A DNA stretch of 44,200 nt from a virus, in IMG/VR virus record IMGVR_UViG_3300045988_113957, positions 1 to 44,200 of that record; one strand, given 5' to 3'. The position numbers and the translations under genes were made by a program. Under the pieces are notes generated by a model. That model saw only the letters and a list, made by a program, of their open reading frames with translations, was not told where the DNA came from and did no database searches. Shown one piece after another: positions 1 to 44,138 of the stretch (position 1 is the first letter of the stretch; the number at the start of each line of letters is the position of its first letter).

Positions 1-55
1 AAAAAAATGTTTCCCGTGAAACATTATGACGGTATTACATACTGTAAAATGTTTG
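1..55. repeat. 55-bp terminal direct repeat identical to 44146..44200 (circular-assembly overlap or short terminal redundancy)
   Basis: Bases 1-55 (aaaaaaatgtttcccgtgaaacattatgacggtattacatactgtaaaatgtttg) are repeated exactly as the last 55 bases of the window. Confidence 0.95.
7..24. repeat. Perfect inverted repeat ATGTTTC-ccgt-GAAACAT
   Basis: 7-bp arms with a 4-nt spacer; a near copy TGTTTC-acga-GAAACA lies at 44005..44020. Confidence 0.8.
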
Positions 56-275
56 TCAAGGGTTACTGAATGCCAAAATTTAAAGTTATAATAACAATGT
101 GATATAACCGTAAAAACACGCTTGCATTATAGCCTTAAACGCGCATAACAGGCAATGCAACAGCAGAACAATGAACATGTGCAGGTGTACAGCCGAATAA
201 TCAGCGGCAATATAGGCAACGCAAGCGGCTTGAATGCAGTGTTGCTATAGCCTTCAAGCGGAGCGGAATCGGGCT

Positions 276-288
276 ATTCCGCCATGAT
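276..288. repeat. 13-bp direct repeat ATTCCGCCATGAT, left copy (right copy 2766..2778)
   Basis: Exact 13-mer on both sides of the minus-strand cassette; the left copy also pairs with GCGGAAT at 263-269 to form a hairpin. Confidence 0.85.
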
Positions 289-325
289 ATTATACAGAAA
301 AAGCATAGTATAATACAGCGGAGTA

Positions 326-358
326 TAAAAAGCCCGCCGGAACATTGCATTCCGACGG
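326..358 (-). terminator. Rho-independent terminator closing the minus-strand cassette
   Basis: Minus-strand reading: CCGTCGGAA-tgcaatg-TTCCGGCGG (9-bp stem, one G-U) followed by GCTTTTTA, 20 nt after the stop at 378. Confidence 0.7.
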
Positions 359-377
359 TTGAAACGCTTATTAAGCT

Positions 378-800
378 TTACCTGCCGCTGTCGGCTTCCG
401 CTTGCCCCGCTAATCTCCGTATCGTGTTAAAAATGTACTCCCGATTGAGTCGCTTTGAACTGCGAATGTGCTGCATTAATGCTTGCAGTTCCTCCGCTAT
501 TTCAAACAGGCTATTTGACATCTCTTCATAGTCCGTTTCGTATGACAGTTTTTCCCGCTCCATTGTCTCTTCCATCTCCCAACGATTCCGAACCCACAAG
601 TCGAAAAAACTTGCCAGTGTTTCGTCGCCGCTTGCGTGCAGTGCTTCCGAAAAAAGCGTTTCAGCCGAAACAGAACGCGCCGCCAACGCCCGAACAATTG
701 AAGGGGCTTCGTAAAAGTATGTCAAAATGTTATCATGGTACGGGATTTTTGAAATTTCGTTTTCGTGTTCATCGCGCATATCCCAATAGCTTTTAATCAT
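378..800 (-). CDS. Hypothetical helical acidic protein (140 aa), last gene of the antisense cassette
   Basis: The ORF-track frame 378..818 begins at TTG; the internal ATG at 800 is preceded by acAGGAGGAcaaaaaATG; no family recognised. Confidence 0.6.
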   Translation of the reverse strand: MIKSYWDMRDEHENEISKIPYHDNILTYFYEAPSIVRALAARSVSAETLFSEALHASGDETLASFFDLWVRNRWEMEETMEREKLSYETDYEEMSNSLFEIAEELQALMQHIRSSKRLNREYIFNTIRRLAGQAEADSGR

Positions 801-814
801 TTTTTGTCCTCCTG

Positions 815-1183
815 TCAAAAATTAATTTCACGGTCGAGCATGTATTGTATCTCGTCATTCCCGAGAGCATTCTCACTCGACAGGATATAGTCCGCAATGT
901 CTTCAACCGAAATCGGCATGTCAATTATATAATCCGCGGACTGAAGATTGTAACTGTTGTCAAACCAGAAATAATCGTTCTGTGGGTTGAAATGCCCGTA
1001 AAAGGCTCGGCTAAGAATCCAGCGCGGCTTTGAGCACGCAAAAATTTCATCCAAATCATACATGCTGAAAATGTGTTCATCTTCATAGTCCGCCGCTTCA
1101 CAATAGTCGTTGTGCAATGCAACGATTTCGCAGGTGTCCAGGCTGTTGATATAATCAACGAGTTTCTTTTTCATTTCGTTCAT
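815..1183 (-). CDS. Strongly acidic small protein, paralog B of 1968..2342
   Basis: 122 aa with 25 D/E against 7 K/R; RBS GGAGAAGGAG; shares N-terminal MNEMKKKLVDYIN and C-terminal DIA-YILS-E--LGND motifs with 1968..2342. Confidence 0.7.
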   Translation of the reverse strand: MNEMKKKLVDYINSLDTCEIVALHNDYCEAADYEDEHIFSMYDLDEIFACSKPRWILSRAFYGHFNPQNDYFWFDNSYNLQSADYIIDMPISVEDIADYILSSENALGNDEIQYMLDREINF

Positions 1184-1306
1184 TTCTTACTCCTTCTCCC
1201 CGTATAGCCAGATAGGACAGCTTGAAATTTATTTTTTAATCAGCAACGGTAACGCTAAGATTACCAGGACGAAAAGAACAAATGTCATTCTGTCACTCGC
1301 CCCGCT

Positions 1307-1975
1307 TCAATGAAAAATGTCCCTGCTGTCGACGAACCCGAAAACGTTTTCGTCGTCCTTGTACACCGGGACCCCCGCGGGAGCCTTAACGCTTTCCCAG
1401 CTTCCGCCGTTTACGGACAACCTGTAAAATCTCCCGTCGTCGCATATGTATGCATACTTCCGCGCCGTGTACAAAAGTTCAGCAGTGCGGATTTTTTCCG
1501 CCAGCTCCGCCGAAATCCTTGCGGAGCATTCTTCCGCCGCTGCGGGCTTCCATGCTTTCCGCCATGCCGCACCAAGTGCAGCTTCCGCAAACCGCCGACA
1601 ACTTTTTTTGCAAAGCTCGTCAATTTTGGCGGCGACATCTTCCGACAAATTCCCGGCTTCCGCCATGCCGAAACCTGACATAATCTCGGCTTTTGTCGGC
1701 AGCTGCACGGCAGCCCACAACATAATTCCAGTTCCGCTCGGGGTTATATGCGCTTCAACCTCCGCGTTTATGCTCGCGCGAATTTCGCCAGGACGGAGCA
1801 AAAAATTAACAAGATATTTTTTCGTTTCGTTGACCTCTGCATAGTCAAACAGCGCACGCACGTCCGAAGCCGCCAAACTCCAGCCGCCTTCGTAACAAAG
1901 AAAACGCATGTTTCTGTCCTCGCTGTCGAGCTCAGATTCTTTCAAGTTGATTTTTCCAAGCAATGTTTTACTCAT
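1307..1975 (-). CDS. Hypothetical protein (222 aa)
   Basis: The ATG at 1975 overlaps the stop of the upstream gene (ATGAGTAA). The first 48 codons of the ORF-track frame overlap 1968..2342 and were dropped. C-terminal YAY-x4-G-x-FYR motif. Confidence 0.6.
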   Translation of the reverse strand: MSKTLLGKINLKESELDSEDRNMRFLCYEGGWSLAASDVRALFDYAEVNETKKYLVNFLLRPGEIRASINAEVEAHITPSGTGIMLWAAVQLPTKAEIMSGFGMAEAGNLSEDVAAKIDELCKKSCRRFAEAALGAAWRKAWKPAAAEECSARISAELAEKIRTAELLYTARKYAYICDDGRFYRLSVNGGSWESVKAPAGVPVYKDDENVFGFVDSRDIFH

Positions 1976-2342
1976 TGTCTTCGCCCTCCTTCTCATCGAG
2001 TATCTTTTGAACTTTGTCGTTTCCCAGACTATCTTCCTCCGACAGGATATAGTTTGCAATGTCGCTTTCAAAAATCGGCAATTCCCACGCGCCGTATGAG
2101 TCGAGGTTGCCGTATCCATTGACTTGCCAGAAGTCTTTCATGAAGTCAAAGTCGCCAAACCGAATCATGCGCACGAGCTCCCACTTGTCTACACCGTCGA
2201 GGACTTCTTCCAACTCTTCCATGTTGTAGATGTAGTCGTCCATGCAGTTAGCGGCATCGCAATAAGCATTATGCAATGCAATTTTTTCGTCGGTATCCAT
2301 GCCGTTGATATAGTCAACGAGTTTCTTTTTCATTTCGTTCAT
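1968..2342 (-). CDS. Strongly acidic small protein, paralog A of 815..1183
   Basis: 124 aa from MNEMKKK, with about 32 D/E against 11 K/R; ATGA overlap with the upstream gene at 2339-2342. Confidence 0.7.
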   Translation of the reverse strand: MNEMKKKLVDYINGMDTDEKIALHNAYCDAANCMDDYIYNMEELEEVLDGVDKWELVRMIRFGDFDFMKDFWQVNGYGNLDSYGAWELPIFESDIANYILSEEDSLGNDKVQKILDEKEGEDNE

Positions 2343-2524
2343 TTTGTTGTTCCTCCATTCGAGACTTCCACCGCGTCCCACTCAACAATGCCACGCCCGG
2401 AAGCAGCCTTCCAGACCGGTTGACGGTAAAAACCGCCGTGCCGGTAGGCATACCGATAATTTGAGGTATAGTAAACCCCTTGCTTTTCAATCTTCTTTGC
2501 AAGCTTTGCGGATATTTTTGTCAT
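2339..2524 (-). CDS. Small basic protein (61 aa; 76 aa if the leaderless ATG at 2569 is used)
   Basis: TIR GAAGGGAAAATAAAAATG; an in-frame ATG at 2569 lies exactly 6 nt after the -10 box; carries the YAY-x2-GGFYR motif also seen in 1307..1975. Confidence 0.55.
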   Translation of the reverse strand: MTKISAKLAKKIEKQGVYYTSNYRYAYRHGGFYRQPVWKAASGRGIVEWDAVEVSNGGTTK

Positions 2525-2575
2525 TTTTATTTTCCCTTCTGGTTTTCGGGTTTTCCTTCCCTTTTTCATGCCTTT

Positions 2576-2604
2576 ATTATACTCTTTTCGCGTGCATATG
2601 TCAA
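2576..2604 (-). promoter_or_regulatory. Consensus sigma70/sigmaA promoter of the antisense cassette
   Basis: Minus-strand TTGACA (2604-2599), 17 nt, TATAAT (2581-2576). Confidence 0.75.
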
Positions 2605-2753
2605 CCCTTTTTTGCTGAAAAACAAAGTATATTTTACTGGTGCAGCTTGATATTCGCAGGGCTTGCGATAGGTTGTATATCATAGCCTATGTTACAATGC
2701 CCGATATAATTATGATACTGCATTTCATCGTATGCCGTCTGGATACTTGCCTT

Positions 2754-3054
2754 GCTATGCTTTACATTCCGCCATGATTATTTATTGTATGAGTACATCA
2801 ACGCTTGTTTTACGCTGCTTTCGCTTCCCTGCTTTGCTGTCGTTCCGCCATGTACTATGTAAAATATTAATAGCGTAACATTGCTATGCGGTATTATGCA
2901 GTGTATTCCGCTTGCCTTGCTTGCGTATGCTATACTATGCAATATTATAATTGCTGTTTATTTGCTGCTGCTATTGCATTATGTGCGGGCTATTGCGTGC
3001 ATATTGCTATTGCTATGTGGTTGTTTATTGTGTGTGTTGTCGGTATTGTGCTAT
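2754..3054. repeat. Degenerate TGCTAT / CTATTGC short-repeat array in the non-coding DNA upstream of terL
   Basis: TGCTAT at 2754, 2882, 2928, 2969, 3005, 3011 and 3049; CTATTGC at 2971, 2990 and 3007; no convincing ORF. Confidence 0.7.
2766..2778. repeat. 13-bp direct repeat ATTCCGCCATGAT, right copy
   Basis: Identical to 276..288; a degenerate third copy GTTCCGCCATGTA lies at 2843-2855. Confidence 0.85.
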
Positions 3055-3259
3055 GAAATAATGACAGAGAGTAAGCCCCACGGTGGGGGATATGCGGTAT
3101 GAGTGCAGGAACAACTTTACCCCTCCGACCACATTTCAACAAAAAGACCCTTTCGCCAAAAGAACCACGAAAAGAACCAAAGAACCACCAACAGAACCAA
3201 AAGCCTTTCCGCAAACACTGTTTCATGATATAATAAATACATACCATAGGAGGCACAGT

Positions 3260-4936
3260 ATGGACATAGCAAAACTAATATTCGAACGCATAGAAGAAGA
3301 CCCGACTAATGCTGAGGCATGTAACGATTTAATCGACTGGTGCATTGCAGAAGCCGCCGCAAAGCCGAAAAAGACGCATTATTACAGTGCTGAGCTTCGG
3401 AAAGTTCTTTCAAAGCAACTGCGCAATAAGTGTGAAGGTGACGTTGAGCAATTATTCAACGCATACAGACGGAGCTTGTTATTTGATGCTCCTAATTCAT
3501 TTGACGCATATTTGCTGTATTTAGAGATAGACAGACCGCCAGCCGAACGATTCTATCAACCTCGCAGGAAACGCCTCAAAGAGGTTGTAGACGCATTACA
3601 GGCACTCACAGACAATGAGCTTGATGAACTGTTTATCAGTATGCCGCCTCGTGTGGGCAAGAGTACAATACTTTTGTTTTACGTTACTTGGCTGATTGGC
3701 AGGAATGATGAACGTTCGAATTTGTACAGTGCGTATTCGAGCACGATAACGCAAGCGTTTTACAACGGCATATTGGAGGTACTCACCGACCCTATCACAT
3801 ACAGATGGTCTGACGTATTCCCGAATGAGCGGATAGCGAAAACGAATGCGCAGGAAACGACAATTGATTTAGGGCGAAAGAAGCGTTATGCCAGCCTTAC
3901 ATGCAGGTCATTGTACGGAACTCTTAACGGTGCGTGTGACTGCAACGGCGTTGTTATATCAGATGACCTTATCGGCGGCATCGAGGAAGCGTTAAACCGT
4001 GACAGGCTTGTTTCTGCATGGAGCAAAGTCGATAACAATTTGTTACCGAGAGCGAAAGAAACGGCGAAAGTGTTGTGGTGCGGTACACGTTGGAGCATGA
4101 TTGACCCTGCGGGTCTTAGGATGGAGCTGTTGATGAACAGCGACCAGTACAAAAAGCGGCGGTTTAAAATAATCAACATTCCTGCACTCGATGAGAACGA
4201 TGAATCCAACTTCTATTACGACTACGATGTGGGATTCAGTACGGAGTATTACCGCCAGAGACGTGCATCATTCGAACGAAACAACGATATGGCATCATGG
4301 GTTGCGCAGTACATGGGCGAACCTATAGAGCGTGAAGGCACGGTATTCAATCCTGAGGATATGCGGTACTACAACGGTGAACTTCCGGAAGGCGAGCCTG
4401 ATAGGGTGTTTCTTGCGTGCGACCCGTCATTCGGCGGCGGGGACTATTGTGCAGCTCCTGTGTGCTACCAGTACGGTGAAGACATTTACGTTCACGATGT
4501 TGTTTACGACAACGGCGATAAGCGCATAACCCAACCCCTTCTTGCAAGAGCAATAATCGACAACAACGTGAGGACGGCGCAATTTGAAGCCACAAAGGCT
4601 ACTGAGACGTACAGAGACGGCGTACAAGAGCTTTTAAAGCAAAAGGGGTACAGAATATCGATAACGACAAAAGCCGCTCCTACACGCACTACAAACGGCG
4701 TGAGCGCAATGAAGGAACAGCGCATACTCGATAAAGCCCCCGAAATCCGTGAACGGATGATATTCCGTGAAGAGGGGAAACGGACAAAAGCATATTCGTT
4801 GTTCATGCAGAATGTGTTCTCGTTCAAGTTTTTGGGCAAGAACAAGCATGATGACGCTCCCGACAGCCTTGTTATGGCAATGAACATGGTAACAGGCAGA
4901 CGGCAGAGGGCTGATATATTCCAGCGTCCGTTCTAA
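3260..4936 (+). CDS. terL: Terminase large subunit
   Basis: RBS ataGGAGGcacagtATG; Walker A-like PPRVGKST; Walker B VVISDDL; C-terminal nuclease-type acidic segment FLACDPSFGGGDY. The 5' extension 3083..3259 has no RBS. Confidence 0.85.
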   Translation: MDIAKLIFERIEEDPTNAEACNDLIDWCIAEAAAKPKKTHYYSAELRKVLSKQLRNKCEGDVEQLFNAYRRSLLFDAPNSFDAYLLYLEIDRPPAERFYQPRRKRLKEVVDALQALTDNELDELFISMPPRVGKSTILLFYVTWLIGRNDERSNLYSAYSSTITQAFYNGILEVLTDPITYRWSDVFPNERIAKTNAQETTIDLGRKKRYASLTCRSLYGTLNGACDCNGVVISDDLIGGIEEALNRDRLVSAWSKVDNNLLPRAKETAKVLWCGTRWSMIDPAGLRMELLMNSDQYKKRRFKIINIPALDENDESNFYYDYDVGFSTEYYRQRRASFERNNDMASWVAQYMGEPIEREGTVFNPEDMRYYNGELPEGEPDRVFLACDPSFGGGDYCAAPVCYQYGEDIYVHDVVYDNGDKRITQPLLARAIIDNNVRTAQFEATKATETYRDGVQELLKQKGYRISITTKAAPTRTTNGVSAMKEQRILDKAPEIRERMIFREEGKRTKAYSLFMQNVFSFKFLGKNKHDDAPDSLVMAMNMVTGRRQRADIFQRPF

Positions 4937-4947
4937 ATTACAAACTC

Positions 4948-4976
4948 TTGACAAACATTTTAGAATGTGTTATGAT
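4948..4976 (+). promoter_or_regulatory. sigmaA-type promoter upstream of the portal gene
   Basis: TTGACA, 17 nt, TATGAT, with an extended -10 TGt. Confidence 0.6.
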
Positions 4977-5008
4977 ATAATAGAGTATATAGAAACGGCG
5001 GTGAATAA

Positions 5009-19535: not shown

Positions 19536-20411
19536 ATGAAGTATGATGTTATTGATTTTATTCGGTGGGGCTTGCGGCATACGATACGTTATGCCGCTCC
19601 CGCTGACGCAGATATGCCGCTGACACCCGATGAATGCGGAATATATCCCACACGCTACCTGTTTGGGACAGTATGGAAACCCTGCACTAAGGCTACGCTG
19701 AATGAGCGTTTTGTCAACCATTACGCAAAACAGGGCTACAGCGAAGAGGATTTTGCCCGCATTACGTCGGAGTGGTCTGAACGTGATTATGCGACAGACT
19801 GTCAAGGCTTACTTGACGCATGGCTGACGGTTGAGTGCAACGAGAAGACCGACATTAATGCGCATATGAACTACACCGATTGGTGTACGGACAAAGGCGC
19901 AATTGCCGAGATAAACCGACCGTATGTTGTCGGCGAAGCGTTGTTTATGCAGTCAAAATCAAAAGGCAGAATGACACATGTCGGCTGGATTTGTGGCAAG
20001 CTGGGACGTGAACCGCTGGTGCTTGAAGCCCGTGGTTTGCGCTGGGGTGTGGTTATCACCAAGCTTAGCGACAGACCGTGGACGCATCGTGGATTGATGA
20101 CGAAAAAATTCGATTATGGCAAAGGTGACAAAATTATGACAAAATTTGAAGTTTCAAGCCCTATGCGTGAGGGCGAAGAGTACAAAAAAATGCAGGCGGC
20201 ACTCAATGCGGCGGGCTACACCGATGAAGCAAAGAAGCCGCTTGTTGAGGACGGAAAGTGGGGCAAGAAATCACAGTTTGCGTTTGAACGCTTGCTGGAG
20301 AATCACGCTGAATCCGAACCTGTTGAAGAACAGCCTGTAACAATCAGCAAGCCGCACACAATCAAGCTCACCGTTGACGATGTGGACTGCTATGAATGCA
20401 CCGTAAATTAA
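19536..20411 (+). CDS. Endolysin: NlpC/P60-type endopeptidase with a C-terminal peptidoglycan-binding domain
   Basis: Cys motif DCQGLLD and His motif MTHVGWI; C-terminal PG_binding_1-like YKKMQAALNAAGYTDEAKKPLVEDGKWGKKSQFAFERL. Confidence 0.75.
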   Translation: MKYDVIDFIRWGLRHTIRYAAPADADMPLTPDECGIYPTRYLFGTVWKPCTKATLNERFVNHYAKQGYSEEDFARITSEWSERDYATDCQGLLDAWLTVECNEKTDINAHMNYTDWCTDKGAIAEINRPYVVGEALFMQSKSKGRMTHVGWICGKLGREPLVLEARGLRWGVVITKLSDRPWTHRGLMTKKFDYGKGDKIMTKFEVSSPMREGEEYKKMQAALNAAGYTDEAKKPLVEDGKWGKKSQFAFERLLENHAESEPVEEQPVTISKPHTIKLTVDDVDCYECTVN

Positions 20412-23808: not shown

Positions 23809-23838
23809 TTGACACGCACATTAATGCGGGTGTATAAT
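23809..23838 (+). promoter_or_regulatory. Early (recombination/replication operon) promoter
   Basis: TTGACA, 18 nt, TATAAT; the spacer contains the palindrome CATTAATG. Confidence 0.65.
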
Positions 23839-31374: not shown

Positions 31375-31403
31375 TTGACAAACATAGATGACAGGGATAT
31401 AAT
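31375..31403 (+). promoter_or_regulatory. Consensus promoter of the small-gene operon
   Basis: AAAACGC-TTGACA, 17 nt, TATAAT. Confidence 0.75.
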
Positions 31404-34700: not shown

Positions 34701-34921
34701 AAAAAATAGAGGATAGATACGGCGGATACAGCCGTGGTAATGCGGCTATCCTTGTCGGGAATTTGCCGGGCAGGAAAAAACTGTCGCTGCTTGTCCGTGG
34801 AGACGACCCCGAAGATAATGCCGCTTGCATTCTGTACAACGCCGCATATTTCAGAAGCGATGAAGATGCTGAAAGGTTTTTGGAGGCTTTGAGAATAGTG
34901 ATAGGAGATGAAATAGAATGA
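34697..34921 (+). CDS. Hypothetical protein (74 aa)
   Basis: ATGA overlaps at both ends. Confidence 0.45.
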   Translation: MKKIEDRYGGYSRGNAAILVGNLPGRKKLSLLVRGDDPEDNAACILYNAAYFRSDEDAERFLEALRIVIGDEIE

Positions 34922-34922
34922 A
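34901..34922. repeat. 22-bp junction repeat ATAGGAGATGAAATA(G/T)AATGAA, left copy
   Basis: Matches 35675..35696 at 21 of 22 positions; contains the RBS and ATG of ant. Confidence 0.85.
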
Positions 34923-35685
34923 TGAAATTAAAGTGTTTAACAACGCAGAGTTTGGCAAAATCCGAACCCTGAACAGAGACGGCGAACCGTGGTTTGTCGG
35001 CAAAGACGTGGCAACGGCATTGGGATACAAAGACAGCGTGAATGCGCTAAAATCCCATGTATCCGAGGAAGATAAAGGTGGGTGGCGGATTGCCACCCAA
35101 TACGGAGAACGTGAAGCGGTAATAATTAATGAATCTGGACTTTACAGTCTGATTCTGTCAAGCAAGCTGGAAGGTGCAAAACGGTTTAAACGTTGGGTTA
35201 CGGCAGAAGTGCTTCCGTCAATCCGCAAGAGCGGCGGATACATAGCGGGGCAGGATGAGATGAGCGACACGGAACTGCTTGCGAAGGCACTGTTAGTTGC
35301 GCAAAGGCAGATTGAACAGCGCAATGCGCAGATTGCGGAAATGCAGCCTAAGGCACTCTTTGCGGACGCAGTAGCGGCATCCCACACGTCAATCTTGATT
35401 GGTGAGCTTGCAAAGATACTCAAGCAAAACGGAGTTGACATCGGTCAAAACCGACTTTTCGAGACGCTTCGACAGCAGGGGTACTTGATACGGCGCAACG
35501 GCACGGATTATAACAGCCCGACACAAAGAGCGATGGAACTCGGCTTGTTTGAGGTAAAAGAATCAACCGTTGGCAACCCTGACGGCTCGGTGCGTGTTAC
35601 TCGCACAACCAAAGTGACAGGCAAGGGACAGCAGTATTTCATAAACAAGTTTTTAGGAGGCATTAAGGATGTTAATAGGAGATGA
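34918..35685 (+). CDS. ant: Antirepressor (BRO-N plus KilAC/ANT domains)
   Basis: N-terminal FNNAEFGKIRTL..GEPWFVGKDVATALGY...INESGLYSLILSSKLEGAKRFKRWVT; C-terminal ANT-type ALFADAVAASHTSILIGELAKIL. Confidence 0.8.
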   Translation: MNEIKVFNNAEFGKIRTLNRDGEPWFVGKDVATALGYKDSVNALKSHVSEEDKGGWRIATQYGEREAVIINESGLYSLILSSKLEGAKRFKRWVTAEVLPSIRKSGGYIAGQDEMSDTELLAKALLVAQRQIEQRNAQIAEMQPKALFADAVAASHTSILIGELAKILKQNGVDIGQNRLFETLRQQGYLIRRNGTDYNSPTQRAMELGLFEVKESTVGNPDGSVRVTRTTKVTGKGQQYFINKFLGGIKDVNRR

Positions 35686-36879: not shown

Positions 36880-37322
36880 TGAAAAAAATTTACACAGAAA
36901 AAATTCATCAATCGACCCGCTTCGGGCTGGTTGATGAAGACGGACGCAAAACCCCTTGCGGGACGCTGTGGTCGGACGCACAGCGGGAGACGTTTAAACG
37001 CCTGCTTAATGGCGGGAACAACCTCGCCTTTATGGTGTGGGGCGGTGACGGCGCAAAGAAATCCGCCTTATGGGCGAAGTGGACGGACGCTCGGGGGCAA
37101 AAGAAACTCTATAAGCTCGGCACGTTCGGGCAGAATGCACCGATGGAAGAGTTTGTAGAAGTCGCAATCGCAACGGCGCACGACAACAAGTGTTGCGCAA
37201 CATGCGGACACTTTGAACGTGTTAACAGGCACGGACAGATAAACTGCGGCATGGGCGTATGCACGCTCATAAACAGGGAGAGATACTGCTTGTTTAAATG
37301 CGGGGATTGGAGTATGCAATGA
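36876..37322 (+). CDS. Hypothetical protein with a C-terminal Cys module (CCATCGHF...C..C....C..C)
   Basis: GGAGGctgaATGATG; 148 aa. Confidence 0.5.
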   Translation: MMKKIYTEKIHQSTRFGLVDEDGRKTPCGTLWSDAQRETFKRLLNGGNNLAFMVWGGDGAKKSALWAKWTDARGQKKLYKLGTFGQNAPMEEFVEVAIATAHDNKCCATCGHFERVNRHGQINCGMGVCTLINRERYCLFKCGDWSMQ

Positions 37323-38179
37323 ACGAACTGAAAGAAAAAGAAACGCAGGCAATAAAGGTACTGCGTACTTTTGAACCCGAAGAAGGGTACGTCCTCGCCT
37401 ACAGCGGCGGCAAGGATAGCGACTGCATAAAAATTCTTGCGCAGCTTGCAGGGGTAAAATTTGAGGCGGTGCATAATTTAACAACGGCGGACGCACCCGA
37501 GACTATGCAGTATATCAAATCCCAACCTGATGTGAGCATTAGTTGGGCGAGGGACAAAAACGGAAAACACGTCACTATGTGGAATCTAATTGAGACGCAC
37601 GGACTTCCGACACGCGTCCTCCGCTTTTGCTGCAACAAGCTGAAAGAGCAAGCAAATCAAGGACGCTTGCTTATAACGGGCGTACGCAAAGCGGAATCAG
37701 TCAACCGAAAACGGGACGGCGGGCTTGTAAAAATAATGGGCAAGCCCAAAACAACGGAAAAACTGGCGCAAGAGATAGGCGTTGAGTACAGCAAACCCAG
37801 AGAAGATGGGCTTATCCTTAACGACGACAACGCCGAATCCCGCCGAATGGTGGAGCAGTGCTATCGCACTCGCAAAACCTTAGTTAACCCAATTTTGGAC
37901 TGGACGGGTGAGGACGTGTGGGAATTCCTGCACCATTACGGTTGTGAGGGAAACCCACTATACAGATGCGGACACAGCCGTGTGGGCTGCATCGGCTGCC
38001 CGATGAAGGGCGGCAAAAAAATGAAGGCAGACCTTGAGCAGTATCCGAAATATGCTCAAATGTACTTCCGTGCAACGGACAGAATGCTTAAACGCCGCAT
38101 GGAGCAAGGCAAGGAACTTCCGCTTGCGTGGGGCGACGGCAGACCCGAAACCGTTATGAAATGGTGGCTTGAGAATTGA
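37319..38179 (+). CDS. PAPS-reductase / PP-loop ATPase family protein (DndC/IbrA-like)
   Basis: ATGA overlap; PP-loop AYSGGKDSD; C-terminal Cys cluster CGHSRVGCIGCP. Confidence 0.7.
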   Translation: MNELKEKETQAIKVLRTFEPEEGYVLAYSGGKDSDCIKILAQLAGVKFEAVHNLTTADAPETMQYIKSQPDVSISWARDKNGKHVTMWNLIETHGLPTRVLRFCCNKLKEQANQGRLLITGVRKAESVNRKRDGGLVKIMGKPKTTEKLAQEIGVEYSKPREDGLILNDDNAESRRMVEQCYRTRKTLVNPILDWTGEDVWEFLHHYGCEGNPLYRCGHSRVGCIGCPMKGGKKMKADLEQYPKYAQMYFRATDRMLKRRMEQGKELPLAWGDGRPETVMKWWLEN

Positions 38180-39577: not shown

Positions 39578-39871
39578 ATGAAAAAGAAAACGCACAGAAT
39601 CGCGTACAGAATCAAAGGCACATGCGGAGCAAAGGTCGTAGTAAACGGCAAGGAATATGAACTTGTCGAAGACGTCCACGGTGGGCAATGGGCGGGAATG
39701 GAAGACATTTACCCGACAGAAGCATGCGCACAGACAACCACAGGCGAAGAAGTCTGGTGGATGTTTGACGACGGCGAGGCTCTTGACCAGTGGGCGGAAA
39801 AAGAGGACTGGAACGCCAACATCAACGGCGTGATTGAACTCGATGAGGATGATGAGGATGATGAGGATTAA
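39578..39871 (+). CDS. Hypothetical protein with a poly-acidic tail (ELDEDDEDDED)
   Basis: 97 aa; RBS AAGGAGA. Confidence 0.5.
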   Translation: MKKKTHRIAYRIKGTCGAKVVVNGKEYELVEDVHGGQWAGMEDIYPTEACAQTTTGEEVWWMFDDGEALDQWAEKEDWNANINGVIELDEDDEDDED

Positions 39872-39882
39872 GGAGGCAATAT

Positions 39883-40254
39883 ATGAAACTCGACACATTG
39901 AAAACGATTGAATCTGCACTCAATGACGCAATCATGGCGGAAGAAGCAAAGAAAAGAAATTGGCGAGCGCAGATTCAAATTGAGCTGAGGGACGCATTAA
40001 GAAATCCCGAAATCGGACGGGGCAAAGAGATACCGATTCGACCATACTCCAACGGAAGGCTGGACGCAGGAGCTGCCTTCCGCATAATAGAAGAAACAGT
40101 CAATACGACCGAAAATGATGAGGTAAAGGAAGAGTGCAAACGGCTGTTTACGCTCTTTGACGATAACAGCCACAAAGAAAACGAAGCCGATAACCGCATC
40201 GCCGAACTTAGGGCGGCGGCGAATGCAATCAAAAACATAAATTGGAGGGAATAA
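39883..40254 (+). CDS. Hypothetical helical protein (123 aa)
   Basis: RBS AAGGAGG. Confidence 0.5.
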   Translation: MKLDTLKTIESALNDAIMAEEAKKRNWRAQIQIELRDALRNPEIGRGKEIPIRPYSNGRLDAGAAFRIIEETVNTTENDEVKEECKRLFTLFDDNSHKENEADNRIAELRAAANAIKNINWRE

Positions 40255-40738: not shown

Positions 40739-41548
40739 ATGCACTATCAAGGCGGCAAATACAGATTCATCAAGCACATAACGCCGATAATACAGGCGGA
40801 GATAGACAAACACCAAGCACGGCATTTTGTATCGCCGTTTTGTGGGGCTTGCAACATCGAGAGCGCAATCGTGCATACCGATAAAACCTGCAACGACAAG
40901 AATGAGTATATCATTCGAATGTGGCGGGAATTACAGCAAGGCAGGGAGTTCCCGTCAACAGTCACGGAAGAGCAGTACAAGTATGTGCGTGACCACAAGG
41001 ACGAAGACCCCGCATTGACAGGATTCATCGGAGCGGGCTGTTCGTACGCAGGAAAATGGTTTCACGGCTACGCAAGAGACAGAACTGGAAAGAATTACGC
41101 CGACCAAGCGAAACGTGGCAATGAAACAACGATGGATGGCAGGATATACCGCAATTTTGCCCGTGAAGCGAAAGACAGCAACGAACGCATGATGCAGGCA
41201 GGGCTGAAACACGCAGTATTTACGGCAGGGGACTACAGGGACGTGGAGATACCGCCCGACACGGTAATGTATTGCGACCCTCCGTATGCCGACACGCACG
41301 GATATGACGGCGCAAAGGGATTCAACTCCGCCGAATTTTGGGCATACATGGAAGAGCTTCTTGATAACACACCTAATCTGTCAATCTTTGTATCCGAGCA
41401 GACCGCACCAAGCGGATGGCGGGAAGTATGGCAGGAAGAGTGTTTGCAGGAAGTCCACAAGAACCCAAAGAACACAGGCAGGCGCAGAATGGAGCGGCTG
41501 TTTTACAAAACAAACAGAGAGGAACAGGATGGACACATCGAGACTTGA
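40739..41548 (+). CDS. dam: Dam-type N6-adenine DNA methyltransferase
   Basis: N-terminal YQGGKY, SPFCGACN (SAM-binding region), catalytic DPPY. Confidence 0.8.
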   Translation: MHYQGGKYRFIKHITPIIQAEIDKHQARHFVSPFCGACNIESAIVHTDKTCNDKNEYIIRMWRELQQGREFPSTVTEEQYKYVRDHKDEDPALTGFIGAGCSYAGKWFHGYARDRTGKNYADQAKRGNETTMDGRIYRNFAREAKDSNERMMQAGLKHAVFTAGDYRDVEIPPDTVMYCDPPYADTHGYDGAKGFNSAEFWAYMEELLDNTPNLSIFVSEQTAPSGWREVWQEECLQEVHKNPKNTGRRRMERLFYKTNREEQDGHIET

Positions 41549-43427: not shown

Positions 43428-43973
43428 ATGGAAGAAAAAAAGACAGGAACGAAGAATAACAGCAGGAAACAATCAACGGCAGTATCAAAACCAAAGCACA
43501 TGAAGGTTGCGACTCCGCAAAACGATGAATCAAGGGCAATGGTATCTCAGCTATTGTCCGAGGTTGCTGTTGCAGCACGGATGCCCAAGGTTCGCAACGA
43601 TGAAGAACTCGCTCTCAGGTTCGAACAGTATTTCGCTTATTGCTCCGCTAACGGTATCATCCCCACAATCGAAGAGATGTATCTCTACACAGGCTACTCA
43701 ATCGGCAGTGTAAACAATTGGCTTGAAGGTAAACACGGATTCAGTCAGCATACAGCGTCTATTGTGAGACGAGCAAGAGACTTTGTGCAAGCGTCTGATG
43801 CTAAACTTGCAATTAGCGGTAAAATCGATAAAATATTATATATATTTAGGGGGAAGAATTTTTATTCAATGACCGATTCTGTCAAAATTGTGGCAGAAAT
43901 GCAGCAAACTGAGGGCAAAAGTGTCAAAGAATTGCAAGAAATATACGCAAAGTCAATACCAATTGAGGAATAA
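43428..43973 (+). CDS. terS: Terminase small subunit
   Basis: GGAGAAAGGGAAAATG; DEELALRFEQYFAYCSANGIIPTIEEMYLYTGYSIGSVNNWL (HTH) and ...ILYIFRGKNFYSMTD are typical of Terminase_2-type TerS. Confidence 0.75.
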   Translation: MEEKKTGTKNNSRKQSTAVSKPKHMKVATPQNDESRAMVSQLLSEVAVAARMPKVRNDEELALRFEQYFAYCSANGIIPTIEEMYLYTGYSIGSVNNWLEGKHGFSQHTASIVRRARDFVQASDAKLAISGKIDKILYIFRGKNFYSMTDSVKIVAEMQQTEGKSVKELQEIYAKSIPIEE

Positions 43974-44082: not shown

Positions 44083-44138
44083 GTCAGCGACTCTCTGGCG
44101 CAAACGACTTTAAAAAGTCAGCGACTCTCTGGCGCAAA
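44083..44138. repeat. Two exact 22-bp direct repeats GTCAGCGACTCTCTGGCGCAAA (44083-44104, 44117-44138)
   Basis: Perfect copies 34 bp apart (start to start) in non-coding DNA downstream of terS. Confidence 0.9.

Follow-up and report, generated by a model that had tools for sequence, protein, structure and literature searches.

A leftward operon of accessory genes in a variable slot between the terminase genes of a gut Clostridia siphophage

The DNA examined here is positions 1 to 44,200 of IMG/VR virus record IMGVR_UViG_3300045988_113957 (the window, 44,200 nucleotides (nt) in all), a circular assembly of 44,145 base pairs (bp) whose ends overlap by 55 bp. Its terminase genes, terS and terL, lie about 3.4 kilobases (kb) apart on the circular map, and the gap between them holds a block of minus-strand genes that is the subject of this report. 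The block occupies a slot that is kept by a clade of gut Clostridia siphophages. Its upstream border is terS (43428..43973, plus strand; 181 amino acids (aa)), which is 89-96% identical in five sister genomes (L001 and L003-L006; TerL identity 98.7-99.6%), and its downstream border is terL (3260..4936, plus strand; 558 aa). Profile matches for both genes are weak: terS matches phrog_606, terminase small subunit, with an E-value (E) of 1.9e-4 and Pfam GP3_package at E 1e-3, below the cut-off, and terL has Pfam matches to Terminase_6N and to a T7 RNaseH-like domain. The genes that follow terL encode portal, Mu-F-like and capsid proteins, a context that fits the terminase assignment. The remaining long minus-strand open reading frames (ORFs) of the genome are rich in Cys, Phe, Leu and Ser and overlap convincing plus-strand genes; because they look spurious, the slot is the sole minus-strand coding block of the genome. 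An earlier, sequence-only reading of this DNA had noted both the distance between the two genes and the isolation of the antisense block, and on these points it was right.

The block is a leftward operon of six genes, in the order A, B, C, a 19-aa micropeptide, D and E. Five of them had been listed in the sequence-only reading, and a separate gene caller applied to an ENA contig returns the same five, of 61, 124, 222, 122 and 140 aa; the sixth, in the spacer between C and D, had been passed over. Consensus scans of the sequence agree with that reading in giving the unit a promoter and a terminator of its own. The predicted sigma-70 promoter, TTGACA-17-TATAAT (2604..2576, minus strand), matches the consensus at 12/12 positions, and the predicted intrinsic terminator (358..334, minus strand) has an 11-bp stem and a T-run to about 324. 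The terminator hairpin is the same in all sister genomes. The promoter is common only to L006, and the strong promoters of the other sisters at the same place differ, L005 having another perfect TTGACA-17-TATAAT and L001 a TTGCAA-17-TATAAT with a TG motif. Three further promoters with a 12/12 match, at 23809, 31375 and 39501, all lie in the non-structural half of the genome, and those at 31375 and 39501 are directly upstream of arrays of small plus-strand genes. From the host-type consensus of these promoters and their placement, we infer that early transcription by host RNA polymerase is the most economical reading.

All six genes are on the minus strand. Gene A (2339..2524), called as an ORF and by the independent gene caller, encodes a basic protein of 61 aa (net charge +7), and an alternative form of 76 aa would start at 2569. 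The GGFYR motif of A, as read by eye in the translations, resembles the C-terminal part, or middle GGFYR segment, of C. Genes B (1968..2342; 124 aa) and D (815..1183; 122 aa) are paralogues with 42% identity and both fall into family phrog_4534; with net charges of -21 and -18, they are the two extremely acidic products that the sequence-only reading had singled out. Gene C (1307..1975; 222 aa) is without the C-terminal 53 or so aa of its homologues, which are 273-275 aa long and end in a domain related to free-standing proteins of 73-76 aa (phrog_33937) in sister slots. Gene E (378..800; 140 aa, net charge -11) shares its C-terminal 45 aa with different 141-aa proteins in L001 and L006, and has no Pfam, PHROG or PDB match. 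For both C and E there are only 7 close homologue clusters, all unannotated.

Sequence searches of Pfam, PADLOC and PDB with the five products A-E gave no match, in line with the sequence-only reading, which recognised no family among them, and a PHROGs search of the same five found a single, uncharacterised family, phrog_4534, for B and D. Neither Pfam nor PHROGs detected a recombinase or transposase domain in the five products. Taken together, the results support the view that the block is a self-contained antisense unit of accessory genes, and not packaging machinery.

The operon is set between two non-coding flanks conserved in the sister genomes, whose flanks are about 91-95% identical at the nucleotide level. 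The left flank runs from 43974 across the circular junction and through 1..365, is 84-92% identical in nucleotides to L001 and L003-L006, and holds the left copy of a 13-mer repeat as well as the terminator. The right flank (2664..3259) extends up to terL and is 92-94% identical to L001 and L003-L005. Homology with the sisters breaks on the left at 369-406, a little beyond the terminator and within the 3' end of E, and resumes on the right at 2664/2665, or in L006 already at 2529. In the sequence-only reading the block was instead bounded by the 13-mer, ATTCCGCCATGAT. Its two exact copies (276..288 and 2766..2778, both plus strand) are indeed present, as is a degenerate third copy, GTTCCGCCATGTA (2842..2854, plus strand), which has 3 mismatches and is kept in most sisters, but the two exact copies stand about 90-110 bp outside the homology breaks, within flanks common to all sisters. 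The left copy (core TCCGCCATG) lies beyond the downstream side of the terminator, outside the variable block, and is invariant in 5/5 aligned sisters whatever their cassette content. The right copy, which falls in a weak promoter-like site of the plus strand (2761-2788) upstream of terL, reads ACTCCGCCATGAT (12/13) in four of the five sisters and ACTCCGCCATGCT (11/13) in L004; because the right copy of the sisters diverges, the 13/13 identity of the pair is peculiar to this genome. Copies of the 13-mer are found in all sisters regardless of cargo, L005 included. The 3.4-kb stretch contains five exact 13-mer direct pairs, two of which result from the B/D paralogy, and the whole genome has 30 exact 13-mer pairs less than 4 kb apart, versus 3.6 expected under a first-order Markov model. 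We conclude that the 13-mer is not an insertion scar, an att-like border or a cassette boundary.

The gap itself is ancestral to the phage lineage and not the product of a recent split. A terL-based scan of IMG/VR gave 80 loci, in 46 of which terS was also detectable. In all 46, terS lies 2.2-6.4 kb upstream of terL (minimum gap 2,215 bp), and neither an empty site nor an adjacent terS-terL pair occurs among them. The closest cultured phage, Clostridium phage Maintenon (TerL identity 42%), has its annotated terS and terL 2.65 kb apart, with small hypothetical genes, two minus-strand ORFs and two tRNA genes in the gap. The proposal that a cassette had split a formerly adjacent pair is thus contradicted by every locus in which both genes were found. 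GC content (guanine plus cytosine) likewise gives no signal of foreign origin in the slot, whose genes range from 0.42 to 0.52 against 0.48 for the genome (standard deviation 0.03), and a megablast search with window positions 1-5000 against 50,697 phage records returned no match.

What varies in the slot is its content. The minus-strand gene sets differ among L001 and L003-L006 despite near-identical TerL, none of the five genes A-E occurs in the L005 slot, and contigs whose TerL matches in every residue carry three different slot gene sets. It had been suggested that relatives be compared for presence or absence of the cassette exactly at the 13-bp repeat; in the relatives the content is replaced, never absent, and the breaks lie elsewhere. 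With conserved flanks and differing genes among near-identical genomes, the slot is a hypervariable accessory-gene hotspot. The more distant relatives, with 60-68% TerL identity (L009-L080), have a large serine recombinase in the slot on the plus strand (27 loci) and an FtsK/SpoIIIE ATPase on the minus strand (19 loci), along with a 334-aa unknown protein, a helix-turn-helix (HTH) protein, a small HExxH-motif protein and many unknowns. With such cargo, the slot is host to genes for lysogeny or mobility elsewhere in the clade. Profile scans of the slot proteins of sister and distant genomes returned all as unknown except the serine recombinase and the FtsK-like ATPase, and a literature search on phrog_4534, DUF3849 and terS/terL hypervariable regions found nothing relevant.

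The acidic proteins B and D belong to a large family. Both match phrog_4534 (B with E 2.1e-7 over residues 2-101, D with E 3.1e-7 over residues 1-115), as does a distant slot member in L053 (E 3.8e-17). The family forms 45 clusters at 90% identity, and an exhaustive profile search yields 1,693 representatives (50% identity) at E <= 1e-3, or 538 at E <= 1e-10. Net charge ranges from -6 to -43 (median -24) over 112 single-domain representatives, with a maximum isoelectric point of 4.88; since all 112 are acidic, acidity is a conserved trait of the family. An HNxYC motif is present in 59 of 149 family representatives and is therefore not universal. The fold check proposed in the sequence-only reading was informative for D and uninformative for C, for which the AlphaFold2 (AF2) model, built on a shallow alignment, has a predicted local distance difference test score (pLDDT) of 35 and is not usable. 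The AF2 model of D is confident (pLDDT 92.3, predicted template modelling score 0.83) and consists of six helices and a small hairpin. Foldseek finds no neighbour for it in the PDB (best E 3.3, template modelling (TM) score 0.22) and in BFVD only uncharacterised phage proteins, from gut siphoviruses (TM 0.85) and from Bacillus and Lactobacillus phages; the model superposes on BFVD models A0A8S5UXC9 and A0A8S5SDR5 and on those from Bacillus phages phiAGATE and Bobb (TM 0.85, E 4e-10). The matches to phrog_4534 and to BFVD, all uncharacterised, place B and D but do not explain them.

The surroundings of other family members are varied. One member occupies the extreme end of a 14-kb phi29-like genome, opposite its structural genes; in phi29, early genes lie at the genome terminus. 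In large Psychrobacter and Vibrio phages, other members stand close to the record start, within arrays of small unknown genes. A few members form part of longer proteins, among them a 1,005-aa protein and one that also carries DUF3849. Fusion partners were considered as a functional hint and set aside, the only ones being DUF3849 and a weak DUF1419, which the polyvalent-protein paper does not mention. A 156-aa member (P0045) continues into DDGRGHFISSYDGKEHEVTVDG..., a sequence that also makes up the C-terminal module of the 161-aa protein encoded first in the L001 slot (L001 8648-9133; phrog_15770). This L001 protein, with its DGRGNFISSY... tail, looked by eye like the C-terminus of the anti-restriction protein ArdA, a comparison that was dropped, since neither Pfam nor PDB sequences support it and IMG/VR contains no further relatives of the protein.

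Two short linkers are conserved within the slot while the genes around them change. The first begins with the sixth gene, which encodes a hydrophobic 19-aa micropeptide, MTFVLFVLVILALPLLIKK (1288..1229, minus strand), and is the best conserved gene of the slot. The peptide is kept in all sisters, with two copies in L006. Its 7 nucleotide variants show 157 synonymous versus 54 non-synonymous codon differences, the latter conservative, and between the window and L003 there are 10 differing codons and an identical peptide. Directly after the micropeptide comes an invariant leader, GCTGTCCTATCTGGCTATACGGGGAG (AAG-CTGTCCTATCTGGCTATACGGGG-AG; 1221..1196, minus strand), just upstream of the ribosome-binding site (RBS) and ATG of gene D. 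In the other genomes the leader is likewise followed by the RBS and start of whichever gene comes next; L005 has three related segments and L006 two copies, each ahead of a different gene.

The 23-mer CTGTCCTATCTGGCTATACGGGG within the leader extends well beyond this clade. Exact copies of it occur in 20 IMG/VR stretches as well as three bacterial assemblies (Flintibacter muris DSM 110149, a Lachnospiraceae metagenome-assembled genome (MAG) and a Clostridia MAG), and in the F. muris chromosome the leader lies amid phage-like small genes. The carriers (L082-L104, L116) include phi29-like genomes of 14-15 kb and contigs of 50-69 kb. In every case the 23-mer is co-oriented with the downstream gene and stands just before its RBS, about 15-30 nt from the start codon, and both the downstream genes and the upstream sequences are unrelated between contexts. 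In L092, a phi29-like contig of 13.9 kb, a perfect inverted terminal repeat of 119 bp has the 23-mer as its inner end, so that the 23-mer precedes the first gene at both ends. Among about 110 loci, the copies are exact or differ at one position, and copies with 2 to 5 mismatches are absent; shortening the pattern by four bases at either end gained only one new contig. The leader RNA gave structure z-scores near 0 and no Rfam match even at E <= 10. A sigma-70 promoter was considered for the leader and rejected: the upstream sequence, at the place of a -35 element, varies by context, and in L005 a perfect promoter stands about 50 nt upstream of the leader, which makes the leader a 5' untranslated region element and not a promoter. 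The sole protein common to the window and the leader-bearing phi29-like phages is the product of 19536-20411 (33% identity), possibly an endolysin, so that any cognate factor for the leader is probably encoded by the host.

The second linker is a stop/start junction, GAGGnnnAnGnCAATGAGTAA (1968..1988, minus strand), which contains an RBS, an ATG and an overlapping TAA and joins B to C. It occurs 8 times in 7 genomes, the window, L003-L006 and L109 among them, joining different gene pairs. The genes upstream of it all end in ...E/D-x-x-N-E and those downstream all begin with MSK; because of this conserved junction, many unrelated slot proteins end in ...EDxDNE and the next ones begin with MSK. 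L004 contains a chimera of a C-like body and an acidic-family C-terminal tail, and in the acidic family the tails ...REINF and ...EDNDNE are exchanged independently of the body. Together with the truncation of gene C, such mosaic patterns suggest that shuffling probably proceeds by homologous recombination at the flanks and linkers.

Several features outside the operon may be recorded here. Just 3' of terS, in non-coding sequence, are two copies of GTCAGCGACTCTCTGGCGCAAA (44083-44104 and 44117-44138; 34 nt from start to start), a candidate protein-binding or pac-related site. The region at 2880-3060, upstream of terL, is non-coding and T/G-rich, with many TTGCTAT/TGCTAT-like repeats, and is kept in the sisters, with a partial deletion in L005. 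Elsewhere, the genome encodes a PAPS-reductase-like protein (PAPS, 3'-phosphoadenosine 5'-phosphosulfate; 37298-38179), a DNA methyltransferase (phrog_56; 40739-41548), an anti-repressor (Ant; 34918-35685) and a small acidic protein that ends in DEDDEDDED (39578-39871).

We interpret positions 366-2663 as the variable core of an ancestral accessory slot between terS and terL, holding a leftward operon that would be expressed early and serve in host takeover or anti-defence; as a whole, this is the explanation we favour, with somewhat better than even confidence. Its two parts differ in strength. The architecture, namely an ancestral slot with variable cargo, borders formed by the flanks, six genes and conserved linkers, we regard as very probably correct. 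The function is more tentative: the operon may act early, either in host takeover or in anti-defence, and B and D would serve as polyanionic decoys of a basic host protein, a suggestion that we put forward at rather less than even confidence. It is based on the host-type consensus promoter, the turnover of content at strain level, the multiplicity of paralogues, the charge of the whole acidic family and the terminal position of its phi29-like member; the conserved acidity keeps a DNA-mimic or anti-defence role plausible. A possible scenario is as follows. During co-infection, genes of the slot would be shuffled by homologous recombination at flanks and linkers. Host RNA polymerase would read the resulting operon early from the consensus sigma-70 promoter, and the conserved terminator would end the transcript. 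B and D would then bind stoichiometrically to a basic, nucleic-acid-binding host protein and block it, working like the anti-restriction proteins Ocr or ArdA without kinship to either.

A number of points weigh against this explanation. Profile scans detected no known anti-defence, anti-restriction or exclusion family in the operon or in the equivalent slots of the sisters. The presumed early timing is taken from the promoter consensus alone, the charge of B and D also fits roles other than DNA mimicry, and recombination at the linkers is deduced from mosaic patterns. Finally, because distant relatives hold serine recombinase, HTH and HExxH proteins in the slot, it could equally be a lysogeny or moron region.

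This last possibility gives the main rival explanation, in which the operon is a moron for lysogenic conversion: it would be expressed from the prophage and protect the lysogen, for example through superinfection exclusion, with the micropeptide as a membrane-acting part. In favour of it, the block has a constitutive-looking promoter and a terminator of its own and is antisense to the late genes; the best conserved gene of the slot encodes a membrane-like peptide, the same slot holds a large serine recombinase in more distant relatives, an anti-repressor is encoded at 34918-35685, and the leader is present among phage-like small genes of the Flintibacter muris chromosome. However, the serine recombinase of the relatives has no homologue in this genome (tblastn against the window, no significant match; best E 0.29), and profile-library scans of 13 window proteins, a set covering part of the proteome, revealed no integrase or repressor. 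In addition, soluble products make up five of the six, four of them acidic, which is unlike typical exclusion proteins, and the acidic family has a member in a phi29-like genome, cultured phi29-like phages being strictly lytic. We consider lysogenic conversion unlikely.

A second rival holds that the slot is kept for cis-acting packaging or late-transcription signals in the flanks, such as the 22-nt direct repeats after terS or the 9-mer TCCGCCATG, and that the genes are neutral passengers. The 9-mer may indeed be a regulatory or packaging motif. It occurs 6 times in the genome versus 0.41 expected, at 278, 1558, 1659, 2768 and 2844 on the plus strand and at 39933 on the minus strand, so that five of the six copies fall within 278-2852, all in one orientation. 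In five close relatives the copies cluster in the gap at conserved flank positions (16 of 20 copies counted over all 46 loci). It also speaks for this rival that the flanks are conserved and the genes are not, and that the right 13-mer coincides with a promoter-like site on the plus strand ahead of terL. Yet two of the TCCGCCATG copies lie inside gene C, in different reading frames, and the motif is absent from more distant relatives that keep the gap. The micropeptide and the acidic family are, moreover, under purifying selection, which shows that the genes are not neutral, and we judge the passenger explanation to be distinctly unlikely.

The remaining rival, a mobile island of five genes that entered between a once adjacent terS and terL and duplicated or used a 13-bp target, ATTCCGCCATGAT, is highly improbable: an exact pair of 13-mers does bracket an autonomous unit with a predicted promoter and terminator, but both copies are inside flanks conserved in the sisters and 90-110 bp outside the breaks, they are present whatever genes fill the slot (even in L005), the right copy is only 12/13 in four sisters and 11/13 in one, five exact 13-mer pairs occur in the 3.4 kb, GC is not atypical, and there is neither a recombinase or transposase in the block nor an empty site in relatives.

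A more far-reaching extension of the favoured explanation can also be considered, although its two parts taken jointly are doubtful. First, phrog_4534 might be a structurally unprecedented class of polyanionic inhibitors directed against host DNA-binding defence proteins, whose paralogues are kept and swapped as an anti-defence arsenal. Second, the slot might be a cassette exchange in which CTGTCCTATCTGGCTATACGGGG is a host-factor-dependent early-expression signal, common to unrelated Oscillospiraceae/Clostridia phages (siphophages, phi29-like and 60-kb phages), that also provides a portable site of recombination by which phages of different families trade early genes.

The locus is of wider relevance because variable slots of small early genes are a repeated source of phage counter-defence genes, and to our knowledge few anti-defence proteins have been described in gut Firmicutes. 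Here the slot keeps its position throughout a clade of phages that are abundant in the human gut, and it turns over between strains with identical terminase. It is dominated by a very large family (about 1,700 clusters at 50% identity), extremely acidic throughout and with a confident predicted fold that is without precedent. Anti-defence screens in gut Firmicutes thereby gain a list of targets that is concrete and cheap. The conserved linkers, especially the 23-nt leader that unrelated phages have in common, suggest how slot genes are traded, and they could serve as bait for retrieving early or accessory genes from metagenomes.

Among known systems, Ocr and ArdA have several general properties in common with B and D and their family: a length of about 120 aa, a net charge of about -20 to -30 and a strong host-type promoter. 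There is also a local resemblance to a motif in the C-terminal domain of ArdA. The sequence-only reading had called this motif faintly ArdA-like, and an hhalign comparison of profile A1 with ArdA 2W82 (verified sequence) does align exactly the DIA-YIL-E--LGN motif, pairing EDIADYILSSENALGN with YDVARYYIEETGALGE, but with a probability of 0.5% (E 0.11), which is not significant. Neither B nor D has a Pfam match to ArdA (PF07275) at E <= 1, the A1 profile found nothing among PDB sequences, and the three-domain elongated ArdA fold is not matched by the D model, which has no PDB neighbour although the PDB includes 2W82. For Ocr (T7 gp0.3), the hhalign probability is 0.05%, with no Foldseek PDB match and no Pfam match. 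B and D are thus not related to ArdA or Ocr in sequence, profile or fold.

A comparison can also be made with the morons of lambdoid phages, which are autonomous promoter-gene-terminator units. The operon is similar in having its own sigma-70 promoter and terminator (both predicted by consensus scans) and in lying among essential late genes. It differs in that it contains six genes, the slot is never empty in relatives, so that there is no clean presence/absence pattern, and its composition is not atypical. Nor does the operon resemble an island with a target-site duplication, in which repeats would stand at the boundary, an empty site would occur in relatives and the element would carry its own recombinase or transposase. 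The description of the block as an acquired moron or anti-defence island therefore holds insofar as it is an autonomous accessory unit of variable content, and fails in that it is not an acquired insertion.

Another parallel is with the hyperplastic or hypervariable regions of T4-type phages, in which mobile cassettes are bounded by promoter-stem-loop (PeSL) elements. Those regions likewise have small, mostly unknown genes between essential ones, content that varies in near-identical genomes, and short regulatory linkers. In contrast, the phage here is a Clostridia siphophage, the slot is fixed between terS and terL throughout the clade, and the block is antisense; its linkers are an RBS/stop/start junction and a micropeptide with a leader, in which no RNA structure was detected, rather than PeSL elements. 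We conclude that the feature is ordinary in kind, being a hypervariable accessory region, and that it is unusual in its fixed position at the terminase genes, its antisense operon, its conserved linkers and its large, structurally novel acidic family.

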